DNA from: a virus
Taxonomy: Duplodnaviria; Caudoviricetes
Direction: 5' to 3' (one strand)
Virus record (IMG/VR): IMGVR_UViG_3300050016_000060
Coordinates: 1 to 59,104 of that record
Length of the DNA: 59,104 bases
The notes under the pieces were generated by a model. The model saw only the letters and a program-made list of their open reading frames with translations. It was not told where the DNA came from and ran no database searches. Below are positions 3,580 to 51,683 of the stretch, in pieces (positions within the stretch are counted from its first letter, which is position 1; each line of letters begins with the position of its first letter). The translations under genes were made by a program, and so were the position numbers.

Positions 3580-3762
3580 ATGAAAAAGCAACTTAGCCGA
3601 CAACGGCGCTGGCAGATTGCGCAGCGGAAAGCGGGACGATGCGAACGCTGCGGGGAGCCACGAAGCGAACGGAGCGGCATTCATTGCGACGAATGCTTGG
3701 ATAAACGAGCGGCGGAAGAAAAAAATAAAACCCGCCTTGACACACTTGCGGCTTGTGGGTAA
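3580..3762 (+). CDS. Small Zn-finger protein
   Basis: GRCERCG...HCDEC. Confidence 0.55.
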   Translation: MKKQLSRQRRWQIAQRKAGRCERCGEPRSERSGIHCDECLDKRAAEEKNKTRLDTLAACG

Positions 3763-3765
3763 TCT
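3737..3765 (+). promoter_or_regulatory. Sigma70-type promoter upstream of non-coding element copy 1
   Basis: TTGACA-17 bp-TAATCT. Confidence 0.65.
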
Positions 3766-3886
3766 ACCGGAGTGAAATGAAAGCGGGGCGGCGGATTCTT
3801 TCGACAAGATGACCGCTCGCCCCTAAAAGCGTACCGACGAATCCATTCTATACGAATCACGTCGGAACGCAATTCCATTCCACGAC

Positions 3887-4155
3887 ATAGCCCCAGGATG
3901 GGCAAAGCCGCAAAACGTCGAAGGAAGCGGCAAGGGCCGTCAGCCGTGGTCTAGGCCCAAAGATTCGACCTCACTGCTTTTGATTCGCCCCGGTGCATCG
4001 GGTAAGGCTCAATACGGCCCGATCATCGACAGGACGTGACGGAGGAATCGTGGCAACGTCCCTAAAAAACCAGACCATGACAATCGGAACCGACTCACCC
4101 GCGAGGAATTTCCTGCATTGGCTCCCGCTGCGGCGGGGTCAATGCGCCCCGATCT
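3887..4155 (+). ncRNA. Candidate structured non-coding RNA, copy 1 (homologous to 44818-45110, - strand)
   Basis: Identical 44-nt and 26-nt blocks plus several 11-13 nt blocks shared with copy 2; compensatory changes in stems. Confidence 0.65.
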
Positions 4156-4206: not shown

Positions 4207-4488
4207 ATGACGCCAGAAGAACGAGCGCTATTGATACTTCCTCTTTGTACTGGCATGGACCTAGGCACAAAAGAGGAAGCTGATTATCACAGGAACGAAA
4301 TCGCCGCCGCCATTCGCCATGCCGTCCTTGCCGAGCGGGAAGCGTGTGCGCAGATAGCGGACCAGTGCGGTGATTACGTTGCCCGCGACAACATTCTGAC
4401 GAGGACGGTGAACTCAGAGAGTTCGTTGGAACTGTCGTCGGCCTTGTTCCAGAGGCCGCAACATGCAACATCCGGGTCGCCTATGTGA
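4207..4488 (+). CDS. Hypothetical phage protein
   Basis: AAGGAG RBS; AVLAEREACAQIAD motif frequent in phage proteins. Confidence 0.65.
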   Translation: MTPEERALLILPLCTGMDLGTKEEADYHRNEIAAAIRHAVLAEREACAQIADQCGDYVARDNILTRTVNSESSLELSSALFQRPQHATSGSPM

Positions 4489-7680: not shown

Positions 7681-9219
7681 ATGAAAAGCGATAACCTGCA
7701 ACCGCCGTTCCTGGGGCCGCAGTTCCCGATCTACCCGCATTTGATGCAGTTGATCCGCGTCACGGACGCTACGCCGATTCCTACGTCTAGCTCGTCGTCA
7801 TCGTCTAGCATCCAAGGCAATTACGTCTTTGCGGCAAAAACGCAGCAACAGCTTGACGTAACGGTTGCCGTGCGGGATAGGGAAGATTGCTATTTGTACG
7901 ATCCGAACGGGACTGATCTGATCGAACATATTTACACGGCCCGTCTGGTTGGCTCTTACGCTGGCTTGCCGCTGTATGCGACAACGGACGCTGTGACTTC
8001 ATCCGTTATCTACGTCTACCCCGGCATAGGCAATCCGCCGCCAGCGTATAACAGCGGTAAAACGTATGGCCAAGGCGACATCGTAAGCGACGGTGCAACC
8101 CCTAATCATGCCTTTGGCTGTTTGGTCGATGGCACGGTGGGCATTTCTCCGGTTGCCGGCCCGAATTGGGCCGATCTAGGCACGGACGTTTATTTCTTCG
8201 CCGCCAATTTGACATCCTTGGTTAATGGCGGATGGGCCGTTGGCGCTGCTATCCAAGCAAGAGAGATGAACGGACTGGCGACGGTTCCGCCTGGCTACTA
8301 TATCGCCGTCTACGAAGAGATCGAGAATGGGATTGCGACATGGGCATTCAGCGGTTTTAGACTGTTGAGATTGCTGAATACGGTTTACAACGCTAATCCT
8401 ACTGGCGGTCCAACGCTACCGACTATCGTGGAGTTCACAGGCTCAGCCCCGGCATGGAGCGCCGGCACATATCAGATGGGTGAGCATGTCAAGTGGACGG
8501 ACGGAAACGAGTACATTTCAAACTCGAATGCGAACGCAGTCGATCCAAGCAATAGCACATGGGACAGTCTCGGCAGCGTTTTGAATTTCGGCCCGCAATG
8601 GATTGTGATTCCGCAGATTGACAACGCTGGATTGCCGGCAGGACCGGCCTCGCCGAAAGTTTCTATCGGAACGATGAACAATCAGGCGCAGTTCTTTGTC
8701 GGCTTAAAAACATTCGACGCCAATATCAACATTGGTGCTGCCTACACCGGAACGTACACGGAAATCTTGGATCAGAGCGTGACAGTGTTTGAGGCAGACG
8801 GAAGCTATGCTTTTATAGGGTACGAAGGCGGGATAAGCGCCCTTGCATTATTAGTGAATACTTTTGGAGTAAGTCACACGGAGGTTACTGATGGATACAT
8901 AACTGCCTATGATGCTGATGCCGCTTCGGGAGGATTCACGACTGGCCTTCAATTCGACACGACAACAGGAACGGTAGTAGCATTCGCCAGCAATTACACC
9001 CATCCTTGTTATGCCGTTTTCGGGGCATTTGGCGTCGGATTGCAACAAGGTTTGTGGGAAACGTATGCCGGATGTTATTTTGCCGGTGGTCTTTACGTTG
9101 GCCATGCCATTCCGCCAATCGTGGCCGATGGAACTTATACGGTTGGGTTGGGCGTGACGACAGACGGTACGATCACGATAACCAACGGCGCTATTACATT
9201 TATTCAACAGGCATCGTGA
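7681..9219 (+). CDS. Tail fibre / receptor-binding-like protein with CBM5/12-like modules
   Basis: 512 aa Gly/Thr/aromatic-rich; AYNSGKTYGQGDIV and AWSAGTYQMGEHVKW carbohydrate-binding-type motifs; C-terminal TITITNGAIT. Confidence 0.65.
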   Translation: MKSDNLQPPFLGPQFPIYPHLMQLIRVTDATPIPTSSSSSSSSIQGNYVFAAKTQQQLDVTVAVRDREDCYLYDPNGTDLIEHIYTARLVGSYAGLPLYATTDAVTSSVIYVYPGIGNPPPAYNSGKTYGQGDIVSDGATPNHAFGCLVDGTVGISPVAGPNWADLGTDVYFFAANLTSLVNGGWAVGAAIQAREMNGLATVPPGYYIAVYEEIENGIATWAFSGFRLLRLLNTVYNANPTGGPTLPTIVEFTGSAPAWSAGTYQMGEHVKWTDGNEYISNSNANAVDPSNSTWDSLGSVLNFGPQWIVIPQIDNAGLPAGPASPKVSIGTMNNQAQFFVGLKTFDANINIGAAYTGTYTEILDQSVTVFEADGSYAFIGYEGGISALALLVNTFGVSHTEVTDGYITAYDADAASGGFTTGLQFDTTTGTVVAFASNYTHPCYAVFGAFGVGLQQGLWETYAGCYFAGGLYVGHAIPPIVADGTYTVGLGVTTDGTITITNGAITFIQQAS

Positions 9220-9226
9220 GGTACTC

Positions 9227-9757
9227 ATGGCAGGAACGCTAGGAACCGCCGCATTGCAACCTACCAGCGCCTTCGTGAGTTCAACCGCGCTGACCACGAA
9301 GGGCGATTTGTTGGCCTACAGCACCGCGATTGCTCGCCTCGGCGTTGGCTCAAATGGCCAAGTCCTGTCGGCGGATTCTACGCAGACAACTGGCCTGAAA
9401 TGGGTAGCTGCTGGCGGGTCTGGGACAGTAACAACCGTCTCCGTCGTCACCGCCAACGGCGTCAGTGGCAGCGTGGCTAACCCGACAACTGCGCCAGCGC
9501 TTACCTTGACAGTATCGCCAACGGCCATCGGCCTCTACGCCGGCAGCTTCTCGCAAGTTGGCACGGCAACCACGACGTTCACGGTTACAATAGGGGTGAC
9601 ATTGGCGGCGAACACTTTCAAGGTGAACGTGACGCCAACGGCGCTGCTGAGCGCGGCGGCGTTCTATGTGACGAACAAAACCACGACGACGTTCGACGTG
9701 GTTTACTTGGCAGGGCTGACCGGCACGGTGACGTTCGATTGGATTCTCAAGACGTGA
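9227..9757 (+). CDS. Tail fibre-like structural protein
   Basis: TTKGDLL...RLGVGSNGQVLSADS..TGLKW, GTVTTVSV, KTTTTFDV motifs typical of fibre repeats. Confidence 0.7.
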   Translation: MAGTLGTAALQPTSAFVSSTALTTKGDLLAYSTAIARLGVGSNGQVLSADSTQTTGLKWVAAGGSGTVTTVSVVTANGVSGSVANPTTAPALTLTVSPTAIGLYAGSFSQVGTATTTFTVTIGVTLAANTFKVNVTPTALLSAAAFYVTNKTTTTFDVVYLAGLTGTVTFDWILKT

Positions 9758-9764
9758 TTTCCTC

Positions 9765-9793
9765 TTGACGCCTCACTTTCATTTCTGTATTCT
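9765..9793 (+). promoter_or_regulatory. Sigma70-type promoter of RHH / glycosylation operon
   Basis: TTGACG-17-TATTCT. Confidence 0.6.
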
Positions 9794-9801
9794 TGTCAAA
9801 C

Positions 9802-9978
9802 ATGGCAACGGTTAAACAGCAAACACGAATCCTGGCCTTGCGCGCGCCGGAAGAAACATGCAAGACGATTGAACGCATCGCGGCGCAGCGAACGATCCGC
9901 ACGGGCAAGCGTTGCACGACGACGGACCTCTTGCGAGAGGCCGTTGCGGAGAAGATCAAGAGGGAGACGAAATCGTGA
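9802..9978 (+). CDS. Ribbon-helix-helix DNA-binding protein
   Basis: ILALRAPEE...IERIA...TTTDLLREAV pattern. Confidence 0.6.
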   Translation: MATVKQQTRILALRAPEETCKTIERIAAQRTIRTGKRCTTTDLLREAVAEKIKRETKS

Positions 9979-10217
9979 AAAAACAATGCCTTAACTGTCG
10001 ATTCTGGGAGGACTGTGAGCCGGAAGAAAAGCCGTATCCAGAAGAAATTGTGCCAGGTTGCGGAGTAACCTTCTTGTCGAAATATGGTATTTGCCGACGT
10101 TATCCTCCCGATCCTTGCCCACCGGAAGGAAACCACGGATGGGCGGTTCTGAACTTTAGCGAATGGTGCGGAGAGTGGAAACCGATTGCGGCAAAAATAA
10201 AGAGGGAGGCGAGATGA
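9975..10217 (+). CDS. Cys-rich hypothetical phage protein
   Basis: CLNCRFW...CRRYPP...WCGEWK. Confidence 0.65.
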   Translation: MKKQCLNCRFWEDCEPEEKPYPEEIVPGCGVTFLSKYGICRRYPPDPCPPEGNHGWAVLNFSEWCGEWKPIAAKIKREAR

Positions 10218-11146
10218 AGATTCTTTTCGTCACCCATCGAGGGGGCGATTATTTGGCCTCGATGATTTGGGACGGCGCACAATCGCTCTTTGGTGAAGAG
10301 AACGTCTACGATGCCGTGAACAATCCTGGCCTTCACGCGGGCGGCGACTGGAATCCCATGTCCCGAATCAGCGGCACGCGGCAAGGGAAAATTCTTGGTG
10401 ATGAAGGCGACTTCGACTTGATGATCCTGAACGCTTGCTTTCTCCGCGATTTCGATTGGTCCCTTCCCGGCAAGTTACGCGAACGCATGAAGCCACGGGC
10501 GAAGATTGCTTACGTCGAAGGATGGGACTCGGCAGCGGAGCATCACGAACCGCCAACGTGGATGCGGATTAGTGATTGCTTCCGACGCGAGATTGATCCA
10601 TCCATCCGGTATCCGTTCCTTCGCGTTTGGCCGCTTTCGTTCGCAGCCCCGGAGCGATGGTTCGATGGAGCGGAGAGCAATGATCGACCGTGGGATTTAT
10701 TCTTCGCGGGAGCGGTGGACGGTTCAGGCGATACGTCGCCAGTTCGTTGGGATATGCTCGCTCCCATGTTCCAGACGCGGACGAAGCATCATTCGATGAT
10801 TGCCACGGGCAGCATCGGCATGGATGGCTACTTCGATATGCTCCGCAAGAGTAGGATAGGATTGTGCCCACCAGGGGCGGCGCAGAGCGTGGCCATGCGT
10901 GCGTTTGAAATCGTGGCTTGCGGGGCAATACCGTTTTTCATCGGAATGCCGCAATGGGAGCGTGATCCGTGGTTTGGTCCCGATACGTCGTTCTCTTGTC
11001 AGCTTGCATCGGGCTTGCCGGACATGATCGCCGCAGCGTTACGAAGCGATCTTGAGCCGATGCGGTTGGCGTGCATCGCTCATGCTAGGCAGCATCACAC
11101 GACGAAGGCCCGCGTACAGCAAATGCTGGAAAGGATGGGGGTATGA
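10214..11146 (+). CDS. Glycosyltransferase (GT-B, Glyco_trans_1_2/CgeB-like)
   Basis: Y.DML.KSRIGLCPPG....MRAFEIVACGA...HHT...RV motif; GGAGG RBS. Confidence 0.75.
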   Translation: MKILFVTHRGGDYLASMIWDGAQSLFGEENVYDAVNNPGLHAGGDWNPMSRISGTRQGKILGDEGDFDLMILNACFLRDFDWSLPGKLRERMKPRAKIAYVEGWDSAAEHHEPPTWMRISDCFRREIDPSIRYPFLRVWPLSFAAPERWFDGAESNDRPWDLFFAGAVDGSGDTSPVRWDMLAPMFQTRTKHHSMIATGSIGMDGYFDMLRKSRIGLCPPGAAQSVAMRAFEIVACGAIPFFIGMPQWERDPWFGPDTSFSCQLASGLPDMIAAALRSDLEPMRLACIAHARQHHTTKARVQQMLERMGV

Positions 11147-11529
11147 GCATGTATGGCGAGTACAACATGGAACCGGACTACGCTCAAACGTATCGCGAAA
11201 ACAAGAGCGATGAAGCGATACGCACCAAAATGTCCATGCTTGAAGGCTTGGCGAAAGCGTTCCTGGACCATACCGGCTTGACGCCTGATCGCGTCGAATT
11301 GTGCCAACAAACGCGCGGAGCGGAAATTGTCTGGTACTTTCGAGAGCGGATAGAATTGCCCATTGTCCAGAGCGAACTAACCTATCGCGGAGTGTCTTTC
11401 GTTGGTCACATAACGCCAGCAGGAACATTGGCAATGCACGCCACGCCCGTTACCGTCCCCGAACCGGAAGAGGAAGCCGACGAAGAAGATGACGACGGAG
11501 CCGACACGCCGATCATCGTGGACGCCTAA
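11143..11529 (+). CDS. Hypothetical protein with acidic tail
   Basis: 128 aa ORF, ATGA overlap. Confidence 0.6.
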   Translation: MSMYGEYNMEPDYAQTYRENKSDEAIRTKMSMLEGLAKAFLDHTGLTPDRVELCQQTRGAEIVWYFRERIELPIVQSELTYRGVSFVGHITPAGTLAMHATPVTVPEPEEEADEEDDDGADTPIIVDA

Positions 11530-11531
11530 CG

Positions 11532-12527
11532 ATGCCCGCATACAGCTACTACGCCGAACAGCGCAACCTCTGGCAGCATGGACCCGCCATGAACGACTAC
11601 GCTGACAAACGACTGGCCCCGCAAAGCAAGCTGGCGTTGCATACGCAGTTTGCGGAGTACATGAGCGGGAAGCGGGTTTACCCGATCAACTTGGAAATAT
11701 CTCCAAGCGGTATTTGCCAAGCATCGTGCGATTTCTGTTTCTATGCGAATACCGGCGAGCTAGGTCATCATCGCAACGTCATGCTCGACACGGAGCGGGC
11801 GAAATTCCTCTTGCTCGAATGCCAAGAACTAGGCATCAAGTCCGTATCGTGGACTGGCGGTGGAGAGCCGACGTTGCATCCGCATTTCGAGCATCTCGTT
11901 GAAACCGCTCGCTACGCTGGATTGGAGCAAGGGCTTTTCACGAACGCTCTCGCCGCTCCGAAATACGATCCTCAATTACTCGCATGGGTCCGCGTAACGA
12001 TGACGGACAAGCCATTTCGCCCGGACTACATCAAGGCGTTGCGAACGTGCAAAACGGTTGGGATAGCGTTCAACTACAGCGGCCCACAAGATGACGCCTA
12101 TCTGCGTGACGTGCTGGCGATGGCGGTTGAGTGCCAAGTTTCGTATGTCCAGTGCAGGCCGGCCTTGAAGTTCCACGGGGAGACAACGGACATCGAGCCG
12201 CCGTCCATTGTGCATCCGTTGCTCCATATCACCGCGTATAAGTTCGACGAAGCACGCAAGCCGCATGGCACGCACTACGCGACATGCGAAGGATACCATC
12301 TTTCACCTATGTGCTGGGAAGACGGGAACGTAGATATTTGTTCGTACATGAGGCAGCATGAAGGATTCACGCTCGGCAATATCTACAAGCAAACGCTGAA
12401 AGAAATCCTTGACGCGGCTCCGCAAGATGTGCCTGTGCATAAGTGCTGCCAGGTAGCCTGCCGGCTGCATGAGACGAACCGCATGATCCATGCTTCACGA
12501 CGTATTGAAGATCGGAATTTTCCATGA
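11532..12527 (+). CDS. Radical SAM protein with SPASM/twitch domain
   Basis: CQASCDFC, TGGGEPTLHP, FTNA, C-terminal C...DGNVDIC...LGNI...CC..AC. Confidence 0.9.
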   Translation: MPAYSYYAEQRNLWQHGPAMNDYADKRLAPQSKLALHTQFAEYMSGKRVYPINLEISPSGICQASCDFCFYANTGELGHHRNVMLDTERAKFLLLECQELGIKSVSWTGGGEPTLHPHFEHLVETARYAGLEQGLFTNALAAPKYDPQLLAWVRVTMTDKPFRPDYIKALRTCKTVGIAFNYSGPQDDAYLRDVLAMAVECQVSYVQCRPALKFHGETTDIEPPSIVHPLLHITAYKFDEARKPHGTHYATCEGYHLSPMCWEDGNVDICSYMRQHEGFTLGNIYKQTLKEILDAAPQDVPVHKCCQVACRLHETNRMIHASRRIEDRNFP

Positions 12528-12970
12528 GCGAAATCGAAGTGCTTGACTTTTGTGCCCGTTTGCGGATAGCGATGTTGTATGCCGTTAATCATGGTCTTCG
12601 TGTAGAGGCTCATTTCGAGAATGGTCTTTACACGGACGCCGGGAAAATCAGGGCCGGAGTTTTCATTCATTACCAAAAAGACAAAGACGCGGTTCCGACA
12701 ACTAACTACAAGCCATTGACGGATGCGGAACGCAAGGAACTCCACAAGCCGTTGACGGAGGAATATGTCGCCCATTTCGGTGAAGGCCAGATTGCCCGTG
12801 ATGCAAGGCGACAACTGGCGAGAGAAATTGCCATAAAATGCAAGGAAGGCATACCCCTGGATTCCGAACCTACTTGCTCCGGCAACATGAAAGATGTCAC
12901 GTTCAGGATATTCAAAACGCGCGACGACGAACCGCCGCCTGAGCCTGAGATTGTGGAGAGGAAGCCGTGA
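12524..12970 (+). CDS. Hypothetical protein
   Basis: 148 aa ORF, ATGA overlap. Confidence 0.6.
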   Translation: MSEIEVLDFCARLRIAMLYAVNHGLRVEAHFENGLYTDAGKIRAGVFIHYQKDKDAVPTTNYKPLTDAERKELHKPLTEEYVAHFGEGQIARDARRQLAREIAIKCKEGIPLDSEPTCSGNMKDVTFRIFKTRDDEPPPEPEIVERKP

Positions 12971-13200
12971 GAATAGGATTGCCTTGTACAAAACGCATGA
13001 CGACTAAAGATGCAAGGATATTTTGCAATCAATTAAAAAAGGTGATGCTCAAGACTATTGCTGCAAACGAGCCTGTAACGGCATCATACGGTGATTGCTT
13101 TGGCGGATCAGGGAGGGGAATTGTATTTATTGAGCGTTCAATTGCTTGTAATGTTAGATCAATAATGAGGTCCATCAGATCGCGGAAAAAGAACCCATGA
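12967..13200 (+). CDS. Hypothetical basic protein (lower GC)
   Basis: Overlapping start and stop with both neighbours. Confidence 0.5.
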   Translation: MRIGLPCTKRMTTKDARIFCNQLKKVMLKTIAANEPVTASYGDCFGGSGRGIVFIERSIACNVRSIMRSIRSRKKNP

Positions 13201-14294
13201 CCGCAAATGAAGTCACAATCTGCACATGCACCCTAGGCGATTCCGCCTTGCATCTCGGCACTCAGCTTGCAGAATTGCGGCGATTCACCAAACGTCGTTT
13301 TCGTCAAATCGTCGTCGATGATGGGACTGCCGACGAAACCATGAAGTGCAACCAGCACAAAGAATGCCTTCATAACGGTGCGCTATGGCTAGAAAATCTC
13401 GGCCCGACGTATGGCTGTTCGTATTCGTGGAATGCCGCTCTTGAGGAAGTGCAAACGCCGTGGGCCTTCTTGATCGAGGACGGCTTGCGTCCCGGCGTCG
13501 GCTGGCTCGAAACCGCTCTGGATTTCATCGCCAAGATCGGCAACCGCTCTTGGCACGGTCACAAGGTAGGCATGGCCGGATTCTCCCATATTCAGGACTG
13601 GACGCTCCGCATGGCCGGCGTGATTCCGTCCGACCTATCGACGATGGAATGGTGGAAACAGCAAGGCTATCGGGATTTCTACGGAAGCGATTGGAACGAC
13701 GGCTATTGGTGCTGGCCACGGATCGCGGGCGGATTGCTGGCGAATGCGGAAGAACTGACCGATGAGCCGCTTGTTGCACGGAAGATCATGCAAAACGCGA
13801 TGGAGATTCCCGCCGAAATCAAGCATGACGAAAACTTTGTGAAGGACCACGACAACTACAAGCTATCTACGTTTCCTGGCAAGTCCCGCTGGCCGCGTTT
13901 CCGCTCGGCAAAGTGCGACTGGTATCCCGGCGCGTTCATGCTCGTCAACATGGACGCATGGCGAGCCGTTGGCAAGTTCCGCGACGGTTGCACGTTCTAC
14001 GAAGGGCATCTAGGCATACGCATGGGTCAGCATGGGTATCTATCGTTGGCCGTGGAAGGCCCGCCGTTTCTGCATACGCCGTCGCTTGGCTTCACGGCAG
14101 GGCCGAAAGTAGGCAAGACGCCACGGCTGCACCTGGACGTGCGGGATACGTTCCTTGCAGATTTTGGCTACGACAACATCGAGGCTCCGCGATTGGCAAA
14201 TGCGGTTGTGTCGCTGGGCACGCAGGCGAAGATTAACGCGGAACTTGCCAAGGTGGAATTGTGGATGGATGAGGGATGGGAGAAATGGCTATGA
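13197..14294 (+). CDS. Glycosyltransferase family 2-like (GT-A)
   Basis: IVVDDGT, G.SYSWN, FLIED, GAFMLV...W..VG.F. Confidence 0.75.
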   Translation: MTANEVTICTCTLGDSALHLGTQLAELRRFTKRRFRQIVVDDGTADETMKCNQHKECLHNGALWLENLGPTYGCSYSWNAALEEVQTPWAFLIEDGLRPGVGWLETALDFIAKIGNRSWHGHKVGMAGFSHIQDWTLRMAGVIPSDLSTMEWWKQQGYRDFYGSDWNDGYWCWPRIAGGLLANAEELTDEPLVARKIMQNAMEIPAEIKHDENFVKDHDNYKLSTFPGKSRWPRFRSAKCDWYPGAFMLVNMDAWRAVGKFRDGCTFYEGHLGIRMGQHGYLSLAVEGPPFLHTPSLGFTAGPKVGKTPRLHLDVRDTFLADFGYDNIEAPRLANAVVSLGTQAKINAELAKVELWMDEGWEKWL

Positions 14295-14491
14295 CGCCTG
14301 AACAATTACTAGCCGAATGGCAAGCTGCCAGGAAAGAATATCGCCTCTTGGATGACGAATGCACAGCGGCTTGGCGTGCCAAAGAGAACGAACGAACGCC
14401 AGCTAAGGACGCCTACAATAACGCACGCGAAGCAAAAGAAAAGGCGTTTTCTAAAATGTGTGAACTGCAACGACAGATGGAGAATTCATGA
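14291..14491 (+). CDS. Small coiled-coil hypothetical protein
   Basis: ATGA overlaps on both sides. Confidence 0.55.
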   Translation: MTPEQLLAEWQAARKEYRLLDDECTAAWRAKENERTPAKDAYNNAREAKEKAFSKMCELQRQMENS

Positions 14492-16369
14492 TTACGGTGT
14501 TGCTTTGACTTTCCCCACGGCCTCGGCGACGTACAGCAGCTTTCCGTCGTCCTCAAGCATCTCCGCAAATACCGTCCCGATTGGGCGGTTGACGTGAAGG
14601 TAGGCTACGGCAAGCATACGTGCCTTGCGGGAGTCTGCCGAAATGTTTTCACGGACAAGGACAAGCTAACCGGCGATTACAACACGAAGATAATGATTCC
14701 CTTCTTTGAAAATTGCCAATACTATACCGACCGCCCAAACAGCAAGGTCACGAACTGCCTGCGGGATGTGTTCGGCCTCGACTACGATCCATCGCTAGGA
14801 CGCTACGAGTGCCCGCGAAGCATCGAGAAAATGAACGTCGTCGCCGCATATCTCGCCTCGATTGGATGCAAGAGCAAAGAGCCGTGGAAGTGGAACGCCG
14901 TCGTCCTGCACTACGAAGGCAATACCTCTTGCCACAAGAAAAACCTACGCCATTGGCAGGTATCCGCATTATGCGATTCCATCCTCGAAGCTGGCCGCGT
15001 GCCGATCATCCTCGATTGGGACAAGCGAAGTACCGTGTACGATCAACGGGACATTTTCTGCCCCGTTGTTTCTCCCGATGACATCTGGGGGGGATTCGGC
15101 AGCGGAGACGCGGAGACGATTGCCTGCCTCATCTCACAAGCCGAAGCGTTCATCGGCATCGACAGCGGGCCAGGCAAGATTTCGTCATCGACCGATACAC
15201 CTTCGTTGCATTGCTGGATCGGGCATCACCCGATGCAATTTCACGATCCGGCTCCGAACACGACACACCTATTGCCGATCACGCATGATCGGTTGGACCC
15301 ATGCCGCGACAAACCGGAAATCCTTGACTACTTCAAGGAGCATTATCTCCACCGTACCTACATCGGGGAGCATGGGCTAGTGCAAGAGGGGCAGAAGTGG
15401 CTGGCCGAGGTCATTGGCAGTCCGCTCCCGTCGAATCAAAGGCCGGTCAAGTTCGTGCTGCCAAGCGGGATCGGTGATTGCGTTTGGGCCTTGCACAAAA
15501 TCCGTGCGATTGCCAACGGCAGGCCGATAGACGTGATTATCAGCGGCAATGCCAACAACGAAATCGAGAGGCGAGCGCTGCCATTTTTGAAGCGGTTCGA
15601 TTTCATTCGCTCGGCAGCGGTCCTCGATGTATCCGTGCTGATCGACCATAGCGATCCGGCAGACGCCAAGGGCCGCTATCGGTACGTGCCGGATGGGTTG
15701 AAGGGGAATCACCATTTCCTCATTCCGAACGCTACCTTGGAGCGGGGAGAGCGGTTGGAGACGTGGTTGCCGGAATATCCTATCGACTGGAAAACGATGG
15801 ACAGTTTCGATTGGTCCGGTACGGAGAAGGGGACGGAAGCGGGGAAGAAATTGCAACCGTTCGCGGCGTTCTATCTTGGCCCTGAGACTGGGAACACGGG
15901 AGAGGGGCACAATCGCGGTTCGCTCTGGACGCCTGGGCAATGGGTTGAATTAGGCAAAGCGTTGACGGATCGCGGCTTGCAGATTGCGATTGTCGGCGCG
16001 TCGTATGACCGTAGCTATTGGGAGCGGTTTGTGCGGCCAGAAGTTGAGCGGTCTGGAATGCAATGGGTTGACATGATCGGCAAGTTTGAAATCGGCGAGA
16101 CGTTCGCTTTTCTGCGGGAAGCGAAACTACTCTGTTCGTATCAATGCGGTCTGGCCATCGTCGGCCATTACATCGGCATGAACGTGATAACGTGGTGGCG
16201 CAGAGCCGGCGCGTCCATTCACCCGCACCGGCTCATTTCGTTCAATGAGGCGATGAAAGATAGCTGGACTAATCCAGCGTTGGCTGATCGGTACATCGGA
16301 GCAATTTACGGACGCGAAACGGTTGCCGATTTGCTTGGCGAAATTGACGCTAGGGGATGGACGCGATGA
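14488..16369 (+). CDS. Tandem GT9 (ADP-heptose heptosyltransferase-like) protein; needs a +1 frameshift at CTT-TGA-C (14503-14509)
   Basis: Two GT9-like halves (FPHGLGD...FIGIDSGP; LPSGIGD...W.ELGKAL...ETFAFL..A); ATG 14488 with GGAG RBS is out of frame by one base. Confidence 0.75.
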
Positions 16370-16581
16370 GGCTGGACATCGACGGCGTGACCGTGCCTAT
16401 CGGAGAGATGCACCTTTTCACGCTTCGCTTTTACCAGAAAGGCGGGAGCGGCATTGGCGAACTCTTGACCATCGAGCCGACGCTTTACATGGACGGAAAA
16501 CGGGTAACGCGATGCTGGCGAATGGTTATGGATATTTCGATCTTGCCCGATGAACACGGCGGAAACGCTAATACGCAATAA
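16366..16581 (+). CDS. Hypothetical protein
   Basis: ATGA overlap; 71 aa. Confidence 0.55.
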   Translation: MRLDIDGVTVPIGEMHLFTLRFYQKGGSGIGELLTIEPTLYMDGKRVTRCWRMVMDISILPDEHGGNANTQ

Positions 16582-16596
16582 AAAAAAATGACGGAT

Positions 16597-16638
16597 GATG
16601 ACATGCACGCTTTCGATTTCAGCCGATCGCTCGTCATC
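16597..16638 (-). ncRNA. TIGR-like guide unit 7 (last; followed by U-tract, doubles as terminator)
   Basis: GATGA-CGA-gcgatcggc-TGAAATCG-aaagcgtgca-TG-TCATC then T9. Confidence 0.8.
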
Positions 16639-16654
16639 TATCCGCCCTGGGCCT

Positions 16655-16694
16655 CCGGCACGTTCCGCTTCGGTTACAAGCCACGGTGCGCCGG
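16655..16694 (-). ncRNA. TIGR-like guide unit 6 (overlaps Tas stop codon)
   Basis: CCGG-CGC-accgtggct-TGTAACCG-aagcggaacg-TG-CCGG. Confidence 0.75.
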
Positions 16695-17465
16695 GTGATC
16701 GTTCCATTCAATCCAAAGCATCTTGAGGAAAAGTTTCGTCGCCAGCAACATGCCGTGCAAATGGCAACGCAGCTTTTTGTAATCGGGATGCGCCGCCTGA
16801 AACGTCGCCTTGGCTTCGTCGTAACGTGCCCGATAGATCGAATGATTTTGCTTCATTAACCCTTCCCCGATCAGGTAGGCAATCGAACGCCGACGAGGTG
16901 AATAGCCGAACTTCTCCCACTCTTCGGACGGCAATTTACCTTCCTTGCCGCGCCTCCACGTCGCTCCCATTGCTGTCTTGCCGTTGAAGATCAACGGGGC
17001 ACAACCGAGCCGCTTCCATACTTTTGCCGGATTGGCATAGTTGGCAAGGTCGCCAGTCTCGCCGATGACGATGGCGAGAAAGAGCAAGCCAAAACCGCGT
17101 TGCTCCGGTTTCTCGACCCATGCCTTGATCGGCAGTTTCTTGGCATATTGGAGCATGTTCTTTTCGATGGCATCCTTCTGCGCCTCAAAAGCATTGATGC
17201 CAATCAGCGTTGTCAGCACGATGGGCTTGAGCGGATGGTCCGCTCCCTCTTCCTCGATTGCCTTGATCTTAGCCGACGCCTCGATGAACTTCTTCGCTCG
17301 TTCCTCTTTGGTCATTGTCGTGCAATAGCCGAGCGTACCGGCAACTATTGCTTGCAAGCGATTGGATTGCATGTTGCGGCTTTTGACGATGATGCTACGT
17401 TGCCGCTGGAGCGGGACAAGTTGATCGACGATCAAGGCAATAGGACGTTTCGGCTGCATTGACAT
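16674..17465 (-). CDS. tasA: TasA-like Nop/IS110 Transposase_20-domain RNA-binding protein lacking a nuclease domain (263 aa)
   Basis: Coiled-coil N-terminus, RGFGLLFLAIVIGETGDLANYANPAKVWKRLGCAP, C-terminal H.HGMLLATKLFLKMLWIEW; no DEDD RuvC domain; AAAGGA RBS; flanked by guide units. Confidence 0.75.
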   Translation of the reverse strand: MSMQPKRPIALIVDQLVPLQRQRSIIVKSRNMQSNRLQAIVAGTLGYCTTMTKEERAKKFIEASAKIKAIEEEGADHPLKPIVLTTLIGINAFEAQKDAIEKNMLQYAKKLPIKAWVEKPEQRGFGLLFLAIVIGETGDLANYANPAKVWKRLGCAPLIFNGKTAMGATWRRGKEGKLPSEEWEKFGYSPRRRSIAYLIGEGLMKQNHSIYRARYDEAKATFQAAHPDYKKLRCHLHGMLLATKLFLKMLWIEWNDHPAHRGL

Positions 17466-17492
17466 GGTGTTTCCTTTCGGTTTGGGTGATTC

Positions 17493-17536
17493 TCTTGGCA
17501 TGATGCCACTCGGTTTCAAAGGATATCTCGTCAAGA
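17493..17536 (-). ncRNA. TIGR-like guide unit 5
   Basis: TCTTGA-CGA-gatatcctt-TGAAACCG-agtggcatca-TG-CCAAGA. Confidence 0.8.
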
Positions 17537-17539
17537 AGG

Positions 17540-17619
17540 TGCAAAAGAAGTCAGTAGAGGTTAATAACGCCTGGGTCGATTACACGAGCGTAGTCATTAG
17601 CCTACTGACTTCTTTTGCA
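17540..17619 (-). ncRNA. TIGR-like guide unit 4 with extended 18-bp outer stem
   Basis: Perfect IR 17540-17557/17602-17619 enclosing TGA-ctacgctcg-TGTAATCG-acccaggcgt-TA. Confidence 0.7.
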
Positions 17620-18097
17620 ACCTCTCGAATCCTCTCCGCAGCTTGTCCTCTGGCACGGACTCACGCACCGTCTTATCCTCTGGCACAAGCGTTGCGAGCC
17701 ATGTCGTCAGCATCACATTAAACCGATGGCCTTCCATAAGTTCCTTTTCGTCGGCAGCGATCTTCTCAAGTTCGTTGCCCATGACAGAGCCGAGCGACTT
17801 GCCAGCAATCGAGTAGAGGTAAACGCTCGCATAGGCATCGTTGACGGCCCCGGCAAGGTCTATTTTCGATTGATTGCTGTACGCTCCCGTATCGTTCTTG
17901 ATCTGACGATTCGTTATGTGCCGCTCGTCATGTACGCGGGCACGGATTGCCTCACGCACCAATTCGGCCTCGAATGATTTGAAATCGGGCAGATTCCGGA
18001 CTTGCTTATCCGCAAGATCGACTGCCGCGTCAATATCGTCGGGGAACTTCGCGGCACAACGCTGCGTTATCTTGATGACGCTCTGAGGAAACTCCAT
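17597..18097 (-). CDS. Unknown 166-aa protein embedded in the TIGR-like array (candidate accessory factor)
   Basis: AAGGAG RBS before ATG 18097; co-oriented with Tas gene and flanked by guide units. Confidence 0.7.
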   Translation of the reverse strand: MEFPQSVIKITQRCAAKFPDDIDAAVDLADKQVRNLPDFKSFEAELVREAIRARVHDERHITNRQIKNDTGAYSNQSKIDLAGAVNDAYASVYLYSIAGKSLGSVMGNELEKIAADEKELMEGHRFNVMLTTWLATLVPEDKTVRESVPEDKLRRGFERLQKKSVG

Positions 18098-18121
18098 CTG
18101 GAAACTCCTTTCGTTTGAATT

Positions 18122-18163
18122 GGCCGCAATTCGCGAGCCGGTTTCATGTGTTGATTCGCGGCC
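18122..18163 (-). ncRNA. TIGR-like guide unit 3
   Basis: GGCCG-CGA-atcaacaca-TGAAACCG-gctcgcgaat-TG-CGGCC. Confidence 0.8.
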
Positions 18164-18175
18164 TTGGTTTAAAAA

Positions 18176-18219
18176 TGGCGACATCGAAAGAGACGGTTTC
18201 AATCCTCGACTCGCCGCCA
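18176..18219 (-). ncRNA. TIGR-like guide unit 2
   Basis: TGGCGG-CGA-gtcgaggat-TGAAACCG-tctctttcga-TG-TCGCCA. Confidence 0.8.
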
Positions 18220-18225
18220 AACTGA

Positions 18226-18269
18226 TTTTGGCTCTCTTGTTTTCGCATTCAGCAACACATTCGCCAAAA
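18226..18269 (-). ncRNA. TIGR-like guide unit 1 (leader-proximal, variant boxes)
   Basis: TTTTGG-CGA-atgtgttgc-TGAATGCG-aaaacaagag-AG-CCAAAA. Confidence 0.65.
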
Positions 18270-18279
18270 CCATAATTGA

Positions 18280-18308
18280 ATCCTATAGCCATACTTTCGC
18301 TACGGCAA
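18280..18308 (-). promoter_or_regulatory. Promoter of the TIGR-Tas-like operon
   Basis: TTGCCG-17-TAGGAT, placing +1 just before unit 1. Confidence 0.55.
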
Positions 18309-18316
18309 TATCAATC

Positions 18317-18345
18317 TTGACGATTTCCCAAAATTTAGCTAATCT
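18317..18345 (+). promoter_or_regulatory. Divergent promoter for RHH-hldE
   Basis: TTGACG-17-TAATCT, 6 nt before ATG 18352. Confidence 0.6.
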
Positions 18346-18351
18346 ATGGCA

Positions 18352-18522
18352 ATGGCACGCCAAAAGAAAAAACCGGCTGACAAACGAACGAATTGCCTTC
18401 GCACGATGCTGACCGCAGAAGAACGTAAGCTAATCGACCGTGCTGCATCGGTTGCTGGCGAGGATACATCGTCGCATGTTCGCCGGCTCGTTCTGGACTT
18501 GATCCGCAAGGGGAGCCGATGA
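18352..18522 (+). CDS. Ribbon-helix-helix DNA-binding protein (not in ORF track)
   Basis: MARQKKKPADKRTNCLRTMLTAEERKLIDRAASVAGEDTSSHVRRLVLDLIRKGSR; ATGA overlap with hldE. Confidence 0.7.
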   Translation: MARQKKKPADKRTNCLRTMLTAEERKLIDRAASVAGEDTSSHVRRLVLDLIRKGSR

Positions 18523-19805
18523 ATCCAATCGACACGCTTATCGAAGCCGACCGCACGACGCCGAAACGCATTGCCATACTAGGCGACCGCATGACGGACA
18601 TATGGATTCACGGCCACTTGGGAACGTGCCAAGAGCAAGCCATGAAGTTCGTAGAAGATTCCAGAATTGCCACAGAGGGCGGAGCGGCGAACGCATGGCG
18701 GCAATTGGAGAACTGGAATTGCCGACGCTTCGGAATGGGATCGCCACGCCCAGAGCGAAACATCAAGACTCGTTTTGTTGTCGATGACAAAATACTCTTT
18801 CGCCATGACGTAGATTTTTTTGGCGAAGCCAATTCAATCGAAGCGAATCAGAAATCAGAATTTGATCGCTTGCTGGAAGCCAAACCAGACGCTTGCCTGA
18901 TAAGTGATTACGCGAAAGATTTCTGGACGCCTGCCTTTATCCGCGATGTCATCACCTACGCCAACGGACGCGGCATTCCGGTCGTAGCGGACGCGAAGAG
19001 AGAGCCGACAGTTTACAAGGGAGCAATCATCAAGTGCAATAAGGCTTATCGCCTACATTTTTATACCTATGAAACATCCAGAAATGACACCTTGGTTATT
19101 ACCAGCGGCGAATATGAGCCGACCGTTATAAGCAACGATGTCGATTTGCATATGCCGAAAGCCCATCCCTATGTCCAATGCGTCAACCACATCGGTGCAG
19201 GAGATAGCTTTGCGGCACATCTAACCCTTGCTCTCGCCCACGGCCTCTCGCTTGAAGATGCCGCCACTATCGCTCATTCAGCCGGTCGTGTTTATGTGCA
19301 ATATCCGCATGGCCGTCCACCGTGGCCACACGAAATCAAGCGCGACATTGATCCACTGGCCGGCAAAATCCTCATCGGCCCCGACATGCCAGGACTCCGC
19401 AAGAGCATCCCCGGCAGGATCGTATTCAGTAACGGCTGTTACGATTTGCTAGGCGCGCATCATCTATACTGCCTCGAAAAGTCCAAGCAATTCGGCGACG
19501 TTCTAGTTGTCGGCGTCAACTCCGATGAAAGCGTGCGTCGGCTGAAAGGACCGAAGCGGCCTATCCAACCGCTTGCAGATCGCGTTGCCATGCTCTGCGG
19601 GCTTTCCTTCGTCGATTGGGTTGTGCCGTTCGATCAAAATGACCCGTCCGAAATCATGCGGCTGTTGAAGCCGGACATTCGCACGAAGGGGGATTTCCCC
19701 GAACTGAATCGGGCCGGCGATGAACACGCCAAAGAAGTGCGATTGATTCCACCGCTGCCAGGCTATTCGACCACGAACACGCTTCGCAAAATTATGGACT
19801 CGTAA
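18519..19805 (+). CDS. hldE: Bifunctional heptose-7-phosphate kinase / heptose-1-phosphate adenylyltransferase
   Basis: PfkB kinase domain (GD.M.D, GGAAN, SDYAK, GAGDSF) + cytidylyltransferase-like domain (FSNGCYDLL..HH, VVGVNSDESVRRLKGPKRPI). Confidence 0.9.
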   Translation: MNPIDTLIEADRTTPKRIAILGDRMTDIWIHGHLGTCQEQAMKFVEDSRIATEGGAANAWRQLENWNCRRFGMGSPRPERNIKTRFVVDDKILFRHDVDFFGEANSIEANQKSEFDRLLEAKPDACLISDYAKDFWTPAFIRDVITYANGRGIPVVADAKREPTVYKGAIIKCNKAYRLHFYTYETSRNDTLVITSGEYEPTVISNDVDLHMPKAHPYVQCVNHIGAGDSFAAHLTLALAHGLSLEDAATIAHSAGRVYVQYPHGRPPWPHEIKRDIDPLAGKILIGPDMPGLRKSIPGRIVFSNGCYDLLGAHHLYCLEKSKQFGDVLVVGVNSDESVRRLKGPKRPIQPLADRVAMLCGLSFVDWVVPFDQNDPSEIMRLLKPDIRTKGDFPELNRAGDEHAKEVRLIPPLPGYSTTNTLRKIMDS

Positions 19806-42200: not shown

Positions 42201-42998
42201 TTACGCCACGGTGATCGCATTCGAGCCGGCGCTGGTGTTCTGAGCAATCCACAACGTACCGGCAGCATTCGAGTACAACGTCACCCCGCCACCGATCAAC
42301 TGCGAGCCAGTCGAGAACGCCAGCGAACTTGCCCCCGCGTTGTTGAGCGCGACGATGTTCGTGCCTTCGGCGGATACGATGCTCATGTTCTGGTTGGCGA
42401 TGACGCGGATGCCGTAGATCAACCCGTTCTGAATCGCCGGCAGCGTGATCGCCACCGCGCCGATAGCGCCGGTGTTGTCGAAAATGCTGTTGTTGTCGGA
42501 GAGCAACGCCGTATAGTTCGCGGTCTTGCTCTGCGGAAAAGGCGTGTTCGTGCCGTTCGCACCCGTGATGCCGTCGTCGAAGATGAACCGCAACGCCATT
42601 TGGTCGCGTGCGTTCTGGTCAAGGCCGAGAAGGTTCGTGCCCTGCACACGCCCGCCGACGAGGATCGCGTAGTATTTCGTCGTGTTGACGCCCGTCAGCA
42701 CGTCCTGCATACGCATCCCGTAAGCCAGGACGCCACGCGCGACCTGCGAGCCATCGGTAGCGGTCGCGGAGTAGTTCGTCCACTGGCCCGACGCCGTGAT
42801 GACACCGAGGACCAAGCCGGGCCGCAATCGCCACGTCGGGCTATTGCCGGGATCGGCAGCGGTAGACGCGATGTAGCCGTTCCACCAGACGAGTTGCCAT
42901 TGCGGACCCCACTGCGTTGCCGCATCGTAGGTCTCAATGATCTGCGTCATGCCGGGAAGGTTGCCGAACTGACTGGAAATCATGCCCATGTTTGACAC
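42201..42998 (-). CDS. Head decoration protein with C-terminal extension
   Basis: LRPGLVLGVITASGQW..Y.....DGSQVARGVL (gpD-like) plus KTANYT...ITLP module. Confidence 0.75.
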   Translation of the reverse strand: MSNMGMISSQFGNLPGMTQIIETYDAATQWGPQWQLVWWNGYIASTAADPGNSPTWRLRPGLVLGVITASGQWTNYSATATDGSQVARGVLAYGMRMQDVLTGVNTTKYYAILVGGRVQGTNLLGLDQNARDQMALRFIFDDGITGANGTNTPFPQSKTANYTALLSDNNSIFDNTGAIGAVAITLPAIQNGLIYGIRVIANQNMSIVSAEGTNIVALNNAGASSLAFSTGSQLIGGGVTLYSNAAGTLWIAQNTSAGSNAITVA

Positions 42999-43159: not shown

Positions 43160-44635
43160 TTACTTCGCCGCAGCAACCGCTTGATGCGGAATGCCGCCCG
43201 TGTTTCCGAGAACCGTTTTCATGATCTCTTCCCGACGTTCCGCTGTCATCGTCCCATCGGACGGAGGACTCTGCACGCTGAACGCACCCGATGACTCTCG
43301 CAAGAGCGCCGGCAAGTCAGCCGCCTTTTCCAGCACGCGGAGAGCCGTTTCCATCGGGTCGATGATCTGCCCTTCCAAGCCAAGCGACATTTGCACGCCA
43401 GGCAAAGAGAACTCGGCAGCAACCGCCGACCGCTGATCGTGCGGAACCTTACTCTTGAGCAAGCGGTCGATACGCGCCTGCCGATGCTTCTTGGCCGCTT
43501 CCAGCCGTTCGGCGTCGGCCCCCTTGCGTTTGTTTCGTTCGGCGTCAAGCTCGTTTTGCATCGAGAGCATGGCCGATTTCAGGATCGGGTCTTCAACCCG
43601 TTTGATACGGTCTGCCAGTGACATTTGCATCGCAGGACTCTCCTCAACGATTGGATTCATCGGCTCTTTTGCAGCCGTGTCAACGTCCGTTTCCATGTCG
43701 ATTGATTCTTCCGGCTCCTTCGCCATTTCCTTCACGCCCCGCATCAGCGATTCGTAAAGGTTGCGCACGAAGGACTTGCCAGGATGCGGCGGCACGGGAA
43801 TGCCCATGCAGTCGAGCAGATGAAAGATGACTTCCTCAAGGTGCGAATCGCCGTCTTGATCGTCCAAGGCTTCCGGCACGCCCATGCCGGTCTCTTCTTC
43901 CGTGCCTTCCTTCTTCGGCGGTTCGCTGCCTTCGGCTTCATAGTCGCCTGGGATTTCGTCGTTCTCTTCCATGTCCTCCATTTCCTCTTCGCTGAACTTC
44001 ACGCCAGCGAACAGGCTGAAAGCGATGGGAGCGACCGGCTTGTACTTCTTGCCGACCTTCTTCAACAGGCCGGCGCGGGAAAGAGCAAACCCCTCTTGCG
44101 TGACCGTGGCCACGTCCAGCGGCTTCGCTTTCGGAGCAAGGGAGAGAGCGGCATTGGCCTCGATGAAAGGTTGCTGGCGAGCGATACGCGGGCGAGTGGT
44201 CAGAGCGACATGAGAGATAACGCCGTTCCACTTGCGACCTTCCCCGTCCGTGAAGCTGTTGACCCACGGCGATGCCCAGCGAATCGACCCTTGCTTGATC
44301 CCTTCGGCGGCTTCCGGCTTCGTGATGTTTAGGATGCCGAACAGCGCCGGAATGTCCTTCGCGTTCTCGTCCTTCACCATTCCCTTTTCGTATCGCTTGA
44401 CCTCGCCAGCATTGTGAAGCACCGTGTTCGCGGCCTTCTCTTCCGGCGTCATCGCGGTCGCGGTCGGCTGATGTTCCAGAGGAACGGGAATCGAGATGCC
44501 GTGACTCAGCATCTTCACGCCGTCATCGTGGTAATGGTCGATGGTTGCAGGCGTCACGTCGAGAACTTGCGGCTTGCCCTTATCGTCGATGTAGACGTGC
44601 TTGCCAGCGCGAATGATTTCTTTGCGGACTTCCAT
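43160..44635 (-). CDS. Mu-like prohead protease / scaffold protein
   Basis: VPLEH, WASP, ISHVALTTRP; acidic helical C-terminal half. Confidence 0.75.
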   Translation of the reverse strand: MEVRKEIIRAGKHVYIDDKGKPQVLDVTPATIDHYHDDGVKMLSHGISIPVPLEHQPTATAMTPEEKAANTVLHNAGEVKRYEKGMVKDENAKDIPALFGILNITKPEAAEGIKQGSIRWASPWVNSFTDGEGRKWNGVISHVALTTRPRIARQQPFIEANAALSLAPKAKPLDVATVTQEGFALSRAGLLKKVGKKYKPVAPIAFSLFAGVKFSEEEMEDMEENDEIPGDYEAEGSEPPKKEGTEEETGMGVPEALDDQDGDSHLEEVIFHLLDCMGIPVPPHPGKSFVRNLYESLMRGVKEMAKEPEESIDMETDVDTAAKEPMNPIVEESPAMQMSLADRIKRVEDPILKSAMLSMQNELDAERNKRKGADAERLEAAKKHRQARIDRLLKSKVPHDQRSAVAAEFSLPGVQMSLGLEGQIIDPMETALRVLEKAADLPALLRESSGAFSVQSPPSDGTMTAERREEIMKTVLGNTGGIPHQAVAAAK

Positions 44636-44817: not shown

Positions 44818-45110
44818 AGATCGGGGCGCATTGACCCCGCCGCGAATTTTATCGCAGCGTAAGTCAATGCGTTTCCGTGTCGTAAAGGTGAGTCGGTAAC
44901 GCTTGCCGAAGTCTGGTTTTTTATGGATGTTGCTTCAGTTCCTCCGTCACATCCTATCGGTGAATGGGCCGTCTTTAGCCTCGCCTCATTGCACCGGCTC
45001 GCCTACGAGCGTTGCAGCAAACAGTATAGATCGAATCTTTGGGCCTAGACCACGGCTGACGGCCCTTGCCGCTTTTTCGATGATTGCGGCTGCGTCCATC
45101 CTGGGACTAT
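44818..45110 (-). ncRNA. Candidate structured non-coding RNA, copy 2
   Basis: Homologous to 3887-4155; intergenic, upstream of protease/scaffold gene. Confidence 0.65.
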
Positions 45111-45300
45111 TTCGGCTTGATTGGGATGACGAGAAATGATAAGCTATTTCCGTCATGACTAATTGCAGTCCCCGTCCTGATTCTAGTCAGGCGGGGACAT
45201 TTCATTTCCAGACTATCGCAAACCTCCCTACCCCTTGTCAAGAGAAAAACCCGCCGCATGTTTCTGTCCATGCGACGGGCCGCGACGATGGGAGAACGTC

Positions 45301-51610: not shown

Positions 51611-51683
51611 GTCGAGTTCCTCACCCGACACCTTAATTATACCGGATAGCGTCGATGAGTCAAGCGTATAGTCTAGTTATTTT
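51611..51683 (-). promoter_or_regulatory. 73-bp direct repeat copy 1 containing strong promoter
   Basis: TTGACT-16-TATAAT; identical to 52904-52976. Confidence 0.85.

Follow-up and report, generated by a model that had tools for sequence, protein, structure and literature searches.

Two related stretches of DNA stand at the boundaries of the two long transcription units of a metagenomic phage, and the question is what kind of element they are and what they could do for the phage. The window (i.e. the whole stretch of DNA that was analysed, 59,104 bases) is a complete IMG/VR virus entry, linear and ~80% complete. A sequence-only reading had proposed a candidate structured RNA in two diverged copies, at 3887-4155 (+ strand; copy 1) and 44818-45110 (- strand; copy 2). 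As far as its sequence tells, this is a conserved, apparently structured and very rare non-coding element, and its function is putative.

Genes of this phage lie on the + strand up to ~16.4 kb and on the - strand from ~20.2 to 48.8 kb. Head genes are found in the - strand run (a lambda-D-like decoration domain, Mu gp36, Mu F and the large terminase; the Mu-portal match is weak), and the + strand run encodes a metallophosphatase, glycosyltransferases, a radical-SAM protein and a heptose-related enzyme. The terminase shares at most ~30% identity with cultured-phage terminases, and no counterpart of the capsid protein was found among cultured phages. Eight sequencing runs contain the window record, all labelled peat metagenome DNA; the contigs examined from these runs are pieces of the same phage plus one piece resembling the third copy described below, with no new variants among them.

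Copies of the element in two phages

The window record contains exactly two copies of the element, which share 73% identity over 269 nt (E 4.4e-41). The exact blocks reported earlier were reproduced: a block of 44 nt (3925-3968, the reverse complement of 45031-45074) and a block of 26 nt (4130-4155, the reverse complement of 44818-44843) each have two matches in the window, a number reached by 0 of 100 shuffles in either case. GTGACGGAGGAA, TAAAAAACCAGAC and ACCGACTCACC are likewise common to both copies, and the shared blocks are separated by segments of variable length, as had been noticed. The boundaries given in that reading proved too narrow, as a GAAATGAAA box and two hairpins are found upstream in every copy. 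Since this upstream layout is the same in every copy, the unit is ~420-430 nt long, and spans 3737-4155 (+ strand) and 45241-44818 (- strand). In all three copies (the third is from another phage, see below) the layout is a -35-like word (TTGACA in copy 1, TTGACA in copy 2 and TTGCAT in the third), the 9-nt box GAAATGAAA whose distance 3' of that word is 27-31 nt, a G+C-rich hairpin (H1) directly 3' of the box, and a second hairpin (H2). The sequences of H1 and H2 differ between copies, with a stability far above shuffles in each: folding z is -3.83, -6.63 and -3.51 for H1, and -3.47, -4.16 and -3.69 for H2 (copy 1, copy 2 and third copy, respectively). The parts of the two window copies and their nearest neighbours are as follows.

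3737..3765, + strand: promoter-like site of copy 1, TTGACA-17-TAATCT, read by eye and not called by the promoter scan
3774..3782, + strand: box GAAATGAAA of copy 1, exact in all three copies
3785..3823, + strand: hairpin H1 of copy 1 (-21.1 kcal/mol, z -3.83, 0 of 200 shuffles as good)
3829..3870, + strand: hairpin H2 of copy 1 (-15.0 kcal/mol, z -3.47)
3883..3968, + strand: 5' body of copy 1, common to copy 2 and largely different in the third copy
3890-3903, + strand: CAGGAT-loop hairpin of this 5' body
3907-3931, + strand: GCCGC/GCGGC hairpin of this 5' body
3925-3968, + strand: 44-nt block of this 5' body, exact in copy 2
3943..4081, + strand: core of copy 1, predicted long-range helix around hairpins A, B and C (RNAalifold, pair counts)
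3943-3952 with 4072-4081, + strand: the long-range helix of copy 1
3991-4028, + strand: hairpin B of copy 1
4032-4061, + strand: hairpin C of copy 1
4063..4099, + strand: invariant, mostly unpaired C/A-rich stretch of copy 1, TAAAAAACCAGAC ... ACCGACTCACC
4115..4155, + strand: hairpin D (4115-4145) and conserved tail GCCCCGATCT of copy 1 (-24.3 kcal/mol, z -4.93)
4207..4488, + strand: first open frame 3' of copy 1, at the head of the + run to ~16.4 kb (coding score 0.0)
45248..45281, - strand: intrinsic terminator just 5' of the copy 2 promoter (13 pairs, 8 of them G-C, and a T run; the strongest in the window)
45212..45241, - strand: promoter-like site of copy 2, TTGACA-18-GATAGT with a TG (10 of 12 consensus bases)
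44818..45208, - strand: predicted RNA of copy 2 (box, H1, H2, 5' body, core, hairpin D and tail)
45200-45208, - strand: box of copy 2
45168-45198, - strand: hairpin H1 of copy 2
45126-45156, - strand: hairpin H2 of copy 2
43160..44635, - strand: first gene 3' of copy 2, heading the head/tail run to ~20.2 kb (coding score 0.214)

Copy 1 precedes the 12-kb + run and copy 2 the 24-kb head/tail run, and the scan called no terminator-like site between either copy and the next gene. The open frame 4207..4488 is ambiguous because of its coding score of 0.0. A TTGACA-17-TAATCT promoter had been proposed for copy 1: the two hexamers are present at this spacing, but the second one matches only 3 of 6 consensus bases, so that the scan did not call the site. 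The promoter-like sites of copy 1 and the third copy are weak and uncalled.

A gapped motif scan of the viral collection identified a third copy at 9311-9735 of record G001 (L067; 48,340 bases, with direct terminal repeats). It shares 82.9% identity with copy 1 over 187 nt and 80.2% with copy 2 over 126 nt. Apart from the element, the window phage and G001 have no DNA in common, and they share only one real protein (window 7681-9219, 37-38% identity); the best other protein match between the two phages has an E-value of 6.9e-5 (1009 open frames of at least 35 codons). Conservation of the element is at the nucleotide level, since translated searches match it in several frames and on both strands. 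The copies are related in a mosaic way: H2 and the next word link copy 2 to the G001 copy (84.8% over 33 nt), the region of the 44-nt block is common to copies 1 and 2 but largely different in G001, and all three have the 3' core in common.

In G001 the element stands alone. No coding signal is found on its strand from 9165 to 10064; the genes beyond 10064 belong to the opposite strand, with a terminator of their own (9764-9735) at the edge of the element, and the genes flanking the copy converge on it. Two neighbours of this copy may be mentioned. A gene for a CsrA-family protein (PF02599, E 8.1e-13) is found at 8142-8372 on the - strand of G001, ~0.9 kb from the element and divergent from it. 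A divergent small gene adjoins the copy, and its translation looks helix-turn-helix-like by eye (no Pfam or PHROGs match). As for the shared protein, its sites are 7681-9219 in the window, 17931-18983 in L067 and 42586-42858 in a further phage, G006 (partial, 43% over 100 residues); it belongs to no Pfam or PHROG family, and the G001 form lies within a 1228-residue protein.

G006 is a syntenic relative of the window phage, with a capsid protein of 56% identity and the gene order kept (it is the only relative found by capsid protein search). The element was not found in G006, either with a covariance model of the core (R1; no match at E<=10) or with nhmmer (no hit). Between the same two genes that flank copy 2, G006 has small frames, a TTGACT-17-TATACT promoter and a tRNA. 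With a tRNA in place of the element, this is a slot for accessory RNA genes, and the head operon does not need the element.

The tRNA in this slot of G006 is at 14465-14536 of L080 (+ strand); it has an 8-nt anticodon loop, read as 'ttga' by ARAGORN, and scores 37.4 bits with the Rfam tRNA model. The promoter (~14583-14611 of L080) is 3' of the tRNA and precedes a second tRNA-like stretch, which is called by neither ARAGORN nor Rfam. Weak blastn matches of the element at the end of the G006 contig fall inside a repetitive stretch and were discarded as spurious; there, 18160-18428 of L082 consists of tandem repeats of ~30 nt of the type gaaacgctgctcggcgaaatgctg, which may be coding.

No described RNA family matches the element. 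Rfam 15 gave no match at gathering scores in the whole window and, with the limit at E<=10, nothing in the region of copy 1. At that limit the loci of copy 2 and of G001 have weak matches only; the near-tied top ones in the G001 locus are RsmY, on the copy itself (18 bits vs a gathering score of 57, E 0.66), and P10 (E 0.62), outside the element. The GOLLD and ROOL models have no match at E<=10, and ARAGORN calls no tRNA or tmRNA gene in the window or in G001. The element had not been recognized as a tRNA, a tmRNA, RNase P or an intron from its letters, and these searches agree, with nothing significant in Rfam and nothing from ARAGORN.

Further members were sought in several collections. Blastn of the element against 50,697 phage records gave no match, and scanning ~2.9 million viral contigs by six DNA patterns (exact or degenerate) gave no member beyond G001. 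Pattern scans of 241 million metagenome records (39 loci) and of 185,579 species genomes (17 loci) yielded no further member, and a viral collection search with the 504-residue protein whose gene adjoins copy 2 found no relatives. The G001 copy is the only confirmed homologue (by nhmmer, blastn and R1). As the pattern scans gave no further member, either the family is very small or the patterns are too strict. Full-text literature searches with words of the element's sequence retrieved unrelated papers only, and the literature found on phage CsrA and on new phage RNAs names no such element.

Several candidate members were rejected. The next-best R1 match (L043, E 0.013) is inside a 372-codon open frame, and six matches of one viral pattern scan are ribosome-binding sites followed by gene starts. 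A low-GC viral group (L005, L006, L008, L009 and L010) was not accepted as related; the R1 E-values are 0.09-0.15, for loci that had been pre-chosen by motif. A non-coding block of ~360 nt is 95-100% identical in four of the low-GC records (e.g. L008 900-1260). This block is 3' of a long terminator-like hairpin and shares AAAAAACCAGAT...ACCGACTCAC and AGATTCGA (an 8-nt word among them) with the element.

Non-coding character and predicted fold

The element is non-coding. The earlier observation that indels break any shared frame holds for all three copies: the frame of the 26-nt block in copy 1 differs from that in copy 2 and the third copy, and no open frame with a start codon is common to the three. 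Substitutions by codon position are 12/16/12, 15/8/9 and 18/13/11, with no 3-base period, and codon scores are negative for the open frames inside the element and positive for neighbouring genes.

The three copies (i.e. three sequences from two genomes) were aligned and a consensus fold was predicted by RNAalifold; the shuffle control applied to this alignment ignores relatedness. The predicted core contains a long-range helix of GCCGTGGTCT with AGACC..., which encloses hairpins A, B and C. On its 3' side are the invariant, mostly unpaired C/A-rich strand (TAAAAAACCAGAC ... ACCGACTCACC), the strong hairpin D and the tail GCCCCGATCT. The 56 pairs of the core are 93.4% paired, vs 29-43% when partners are slid by 1-3 columns. 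Double changes are seen in six of the 56 pairs, a number matched by 3 of 500 shuffles of these three sequences from two genomes, and the covariation score (0.256, for three sequences) is matched by 1 of 500. The proposal of a structured RNA agrees with these compensatory changes and with the element folding better than shuffles. The covariation is thin, however, with three sequences that come from two genomes, two of which have long identical blocks in common.

Helix B is the best example, with 13 pairs (100% paired, four with double changes); its loop, AGGCTMAAKAC, is conserved. In helix C, 11 pairs are 97% paired and one has a double change, and in helix D double changes are absent and a broken cell is seen in four pairs. 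The pairings listed in the sequence-only reading compare with this fold as follows. The change of GGACGT/ACGTCC to GGATGT/ACATCC is a true double change from C-G to T-A (columns 296/319, in helix C). GCATTGGC and GCATTGAC both pair with GTCAATGC, with an A-U pair in two copies and a G-U pair in one (columns 386/416), and the pairing of GGTCT with AGACY holds in all three copies, within the long-range helix of nine pairs. The GCCGC/GCGGC stem is kept in copies 1 and 2 but is absent from the third homologue. The proposed GGGCCGT/ACGGCCC stem did not survive: the words are present, but the stem is not kept in G001, and ACGGCCC belongs to the covarying helix B. In all copies GGTCY can pair locally, with a GRWCC word close by, or over a distance, with AGACY, and the three sequences fit both.

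Folding of the whole element does not choose a strand; the covarying hairpins do. Whole-element folding z is -2.06 (copy 1) and -4.20 (copy 2) in the forward direction, vs -2.19 and -3.93 in reverse, and the RNAalifold energy is -75.5 forward vs -78.6 reverse. On the proposed strand, helices B, C and D contain 12 G-U cells and one A-C cell, and this strand is favoured because the 12 G-U cells would be mismatches on the other one. The promoter-like sites also point to the proposed strand. In the window, no complementary targets of the invariant strands were found.

A proposed exchanged RNA cassette and its rivals

The reading that we prefer, and to which we give somewhat less than an even chance, is that the element is an exchanged cassette of a promoter and a non-coding RNA; the latter would work, as RNA, on a conserved component of the host and in the window phage would also serve as the leader of two operons. 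What is observed is a repeated element with a third copy and no reading frame, together with its hairpins, its compensatory changes and the contexts in which the copies stand; from this we infer transcription, strand, RNA ends, partner and effect. The cassette would consist of a sigma-70-type promoter and the gene for a structured non-coding RNA of ~0.4 kb (~430 nt including the promoter-like site). The 5' part of this putative RNA would be variable and modular, comprising the 9-nt box, the two hairpins and a phage-specific body, and the 3' part would be the conserved core: the long-range helix closing a three-hairpin junction, the unpaired C/A-rich strand, the terminal hairpin and the tail. 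Such a cassette would be exchanged among phages as morons and tRNA genes are, and in the window phage two copies would have been inserted at the boundaries of its two long transcription units. It probably acts as RNA, and not as a protein or a DNA site, and the invariant loops and single strands of the core may bind a partner that does not differ between the hosts of the two phages, for example RNA polymerase, the ribosome or an RNA-binding protein. Of the ribozyme-like, regulatory or mobile RNA suggested in the sequence-only reading, the last two fit the sharing of the element with an unrelated phage, and no sign of a ribozyme was seen.

As no terminator is called before the next gene, the predicted RNA would also form the 5' leader of both operons. 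The leader role would not be its essence, because the G001 copy stands alone and G006 runs without the element. Some observations speak against parts of this proposal. No 3' terminator defines a free RNA in copies 1 and 2; both window copies are exactly at operon heads, which fits a role in cis equally well; and on the opposite strand H1 followed by TTTCATTTC resembles an intrinsic terminator, which argues against the proposed strand.

The main rival in our analysis, and a rather improbable one, is a cis-acting leader RNA for processive antitermination, like put of phage HK022, EAR of Bacillus or canT of Tn916, in which the nascent RNA would fold, stay on the polymerase and carry it through the 12-kb and 24-kb operons. 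Copies 1 and 2 are directly 3' of a promoter-like site and oriented with the operon, and no terminator is called ahead of its first gene; transcription of the head/tail operon must begin anew at copy 2, because the strongest terminator of the window is just upstream. Two copies at two operon heads mirror putL/putR as presented in the put passages of PMC9378689, the size fits canT, active at 341-452 nt in the canT passages of PMC11658703, and conservation across unrelated phages fits the host polymerase as the partner. The third copy, however, is followed by no same-strand gene and its neighbours converge, and G006 runs the same head operon without the element. Terminator-like sites of the intrinsic kind, which the scan covers, show no excess over shuffles in the operons (16 vs 18.1, 15 vs 22.9 and 21 vs 21.0), and there is no match to the antitermination RNAs in Rfam.

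It is unlikely that the unit belongs to the opposite strand, as an RNA or terminator unit, or is a hairpin-rich DNA site (an origin, a primer-RNA region, a recombination hot spot or a protein-binding array). H1 followed by TTTCATTTC is found in all copies and is called terminator-like by the scan in G001, folding is as good on the reverse strand as on the forward one, and the mosaic kinship between the copies suggests recombination. But the 12 G-U cells of helices B, C and D would become mismatches, no opposite-strand promoter-like site is found at the far end of the element (where G001 has a terminator), and compensatory double changes are unexpected for a protein-binding DNA site.

The CsrA-family gene of G001 raises the prospect of a Csr/Rsm link, in which the RNA would be a decoy titrating CsrA or a CsrA-repressed leader, with G001 bringing its own CsrA; we consider this quite improbable. 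This gene, divergent and ~0.9 kb from the third copy, is of a rare kind among phages (the part of PMC7366521 on csrA counts it in only 30 of 2517 phage genomes). The RsmY match on the third copy (18 bits vs 57) stems from the invariant AGGAA loop of hairpin C, and a CAGGAT hexaloop occurs in copies 1 and 2. Against these points, the RsmY score is far under its threshold, and neither GGA nor ANGGA is enriched (11 vs 11.0, 11 vs 8.7 and 8 vs 7.3, copies vs shuffle means). The window has no CsrA gene (in a record that is ~80% complete), and the CAGGAT hairpin is missing from G001, the very phage with CsrA.

Slightly less probable again is a leader that senses a ligand or a factor (a riboswitch or an attenuator) through alternative pairings. 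The core forms a junction whose loops and joining strands are invariant, GGTCY can pair with the nearby GRWCC or the distant AGACY, and after copy 1 a hairpin of eight pairs followed by TCTTTAAC is found just 5' of a ribosome-binding site. Yet no riboswitch model matches, the three downstream contexts are unrelated (one of them is without a downstream gene), no terminator-like site is called after copies 1 or 2, and the family is very rare. Finally, that the element encodes a small protein is hardly credible: one frame is open over ~60-75 codons of the core in all three copies, with GGAGGAA and then GTG in copy 1 and the third copy, but copy 2 has no start codon in that frame, the frames diverge after ...TDSP so that the DNA-identical 26-nt block is read differently, the 44-nt and 26-nt blocks have no silent changes, and the substitutions and codon scores are those of non-coding DNA (no codon period and negative scores).

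Comparison with known phage RNAs

To our knowledge few phage RNAs act on their own, and put, canT, GOLLD and ROOL are rare examples. The exchanged cassette preferred here could represent a new class of ornate phage RNA, i.e. a cassette that moves between unrelated phages and whose core grips a host machine without a phage protein; we put this forward tentatively, as something we think doubtful rather than probable. That machine could be RNA polymerase (the element then being a put-like or canT-like antiterminator with a new fold), the ribosome or CsrA.

The put RNAs of phage HK022, as described in the put passages of PMC9378689, are two similar copies of ~70 nt with two stem-loops, just after two promoters; they need no phage protein and act on a conserved host enzyme. 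The element resembles putL/putR as a phage RNA (here predicted) in two similar copies 3' of two promoters. It differs in its size (~430 nt) and multi-helix core and in that one copy has no operon behind it, and antitermination is conjectural here. For canT of Tn916, the canT passages of PMC11658703, which name EAR and conAn2 alongside it, give an active length of 341-452 nt and place the RNA 3' of a promoter, co-directional with a long operon and close to an insulating terminator. Both canT and the element would be long, complex RNAs of mobile elements with a similar placement, a likeness drawn from description and not from sequence. Antitermination is shown for canT, whereas it is a conjecture for the element, downstream of which no excess of terminators was found.

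GOLLD and ROOL, roughly 580 nt in the case of ROOL and over 800 nt in that of GOLLD, are accessory RNA genes carried by phages, as the element may be. In this comparison, the element has a conserved 3' core and a variable 5' part, and its slot is taken by a tRNA in a relative. The element is smaller than either (~430 nt), has no match to their models at E<=10, and there is no tRNA in the window. With decoys of the RsmY/CsrB type it shares the AGGAA hairpin loop and, in G001, the nearby CsrA gene, but its score is far below the family threshold, GGA is not enriched and no terminator ends the predicted RNA.

The immunity RNAs of P4 (CI) and of P1/P7 (c4) come from a phage operon leader beside a regulator gene, are shorter than 100 nt and pair with repeats in the same leader. 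The third copy similarly adjoins the divergent, helix-turn-helix-like small gene. The invariant strands of the element, in contrast, have no complementary target in the window.

The element is of a length that can be synthesized, with its own promoter-like site, a conserved core and a variable 5' part. It occurs in natural variants, two of them in the window phage and one in the unrelated G001, and G006 provides an empty slot; together these offer a compact system for studying the benefit of such an RNA to a phage. If the element turns out to modify RNA polymerase or to capture a host factor, a very small set would gain a new fold. What limits the weight of the element is that it is rare, with three copies in two peat phages, and that the RNA is predicted from DNA alone.

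Other features of the window phage were noted in passing. Two near-perfect sigma-70 promoters (TTGACT-16-TATAAT, 11 of 12 consensus bases) are found on the - strand in the right-hand part of the window, at 52929-52956 and 51636-51663, and the element is downstream of neither. Between the converging gene runs there is a gene for a transposase-like protein (16674-17534, - strand; phrog_4285, E 1.6e-7). The stretch from 10163 to 19805 forms a sugar-related gene cluster, with GT47-like, GT9 heptosyltransferase-like and radical SAM/SPASM proteins and an HldE-like heptose kinase/adenylyltransferase domain.
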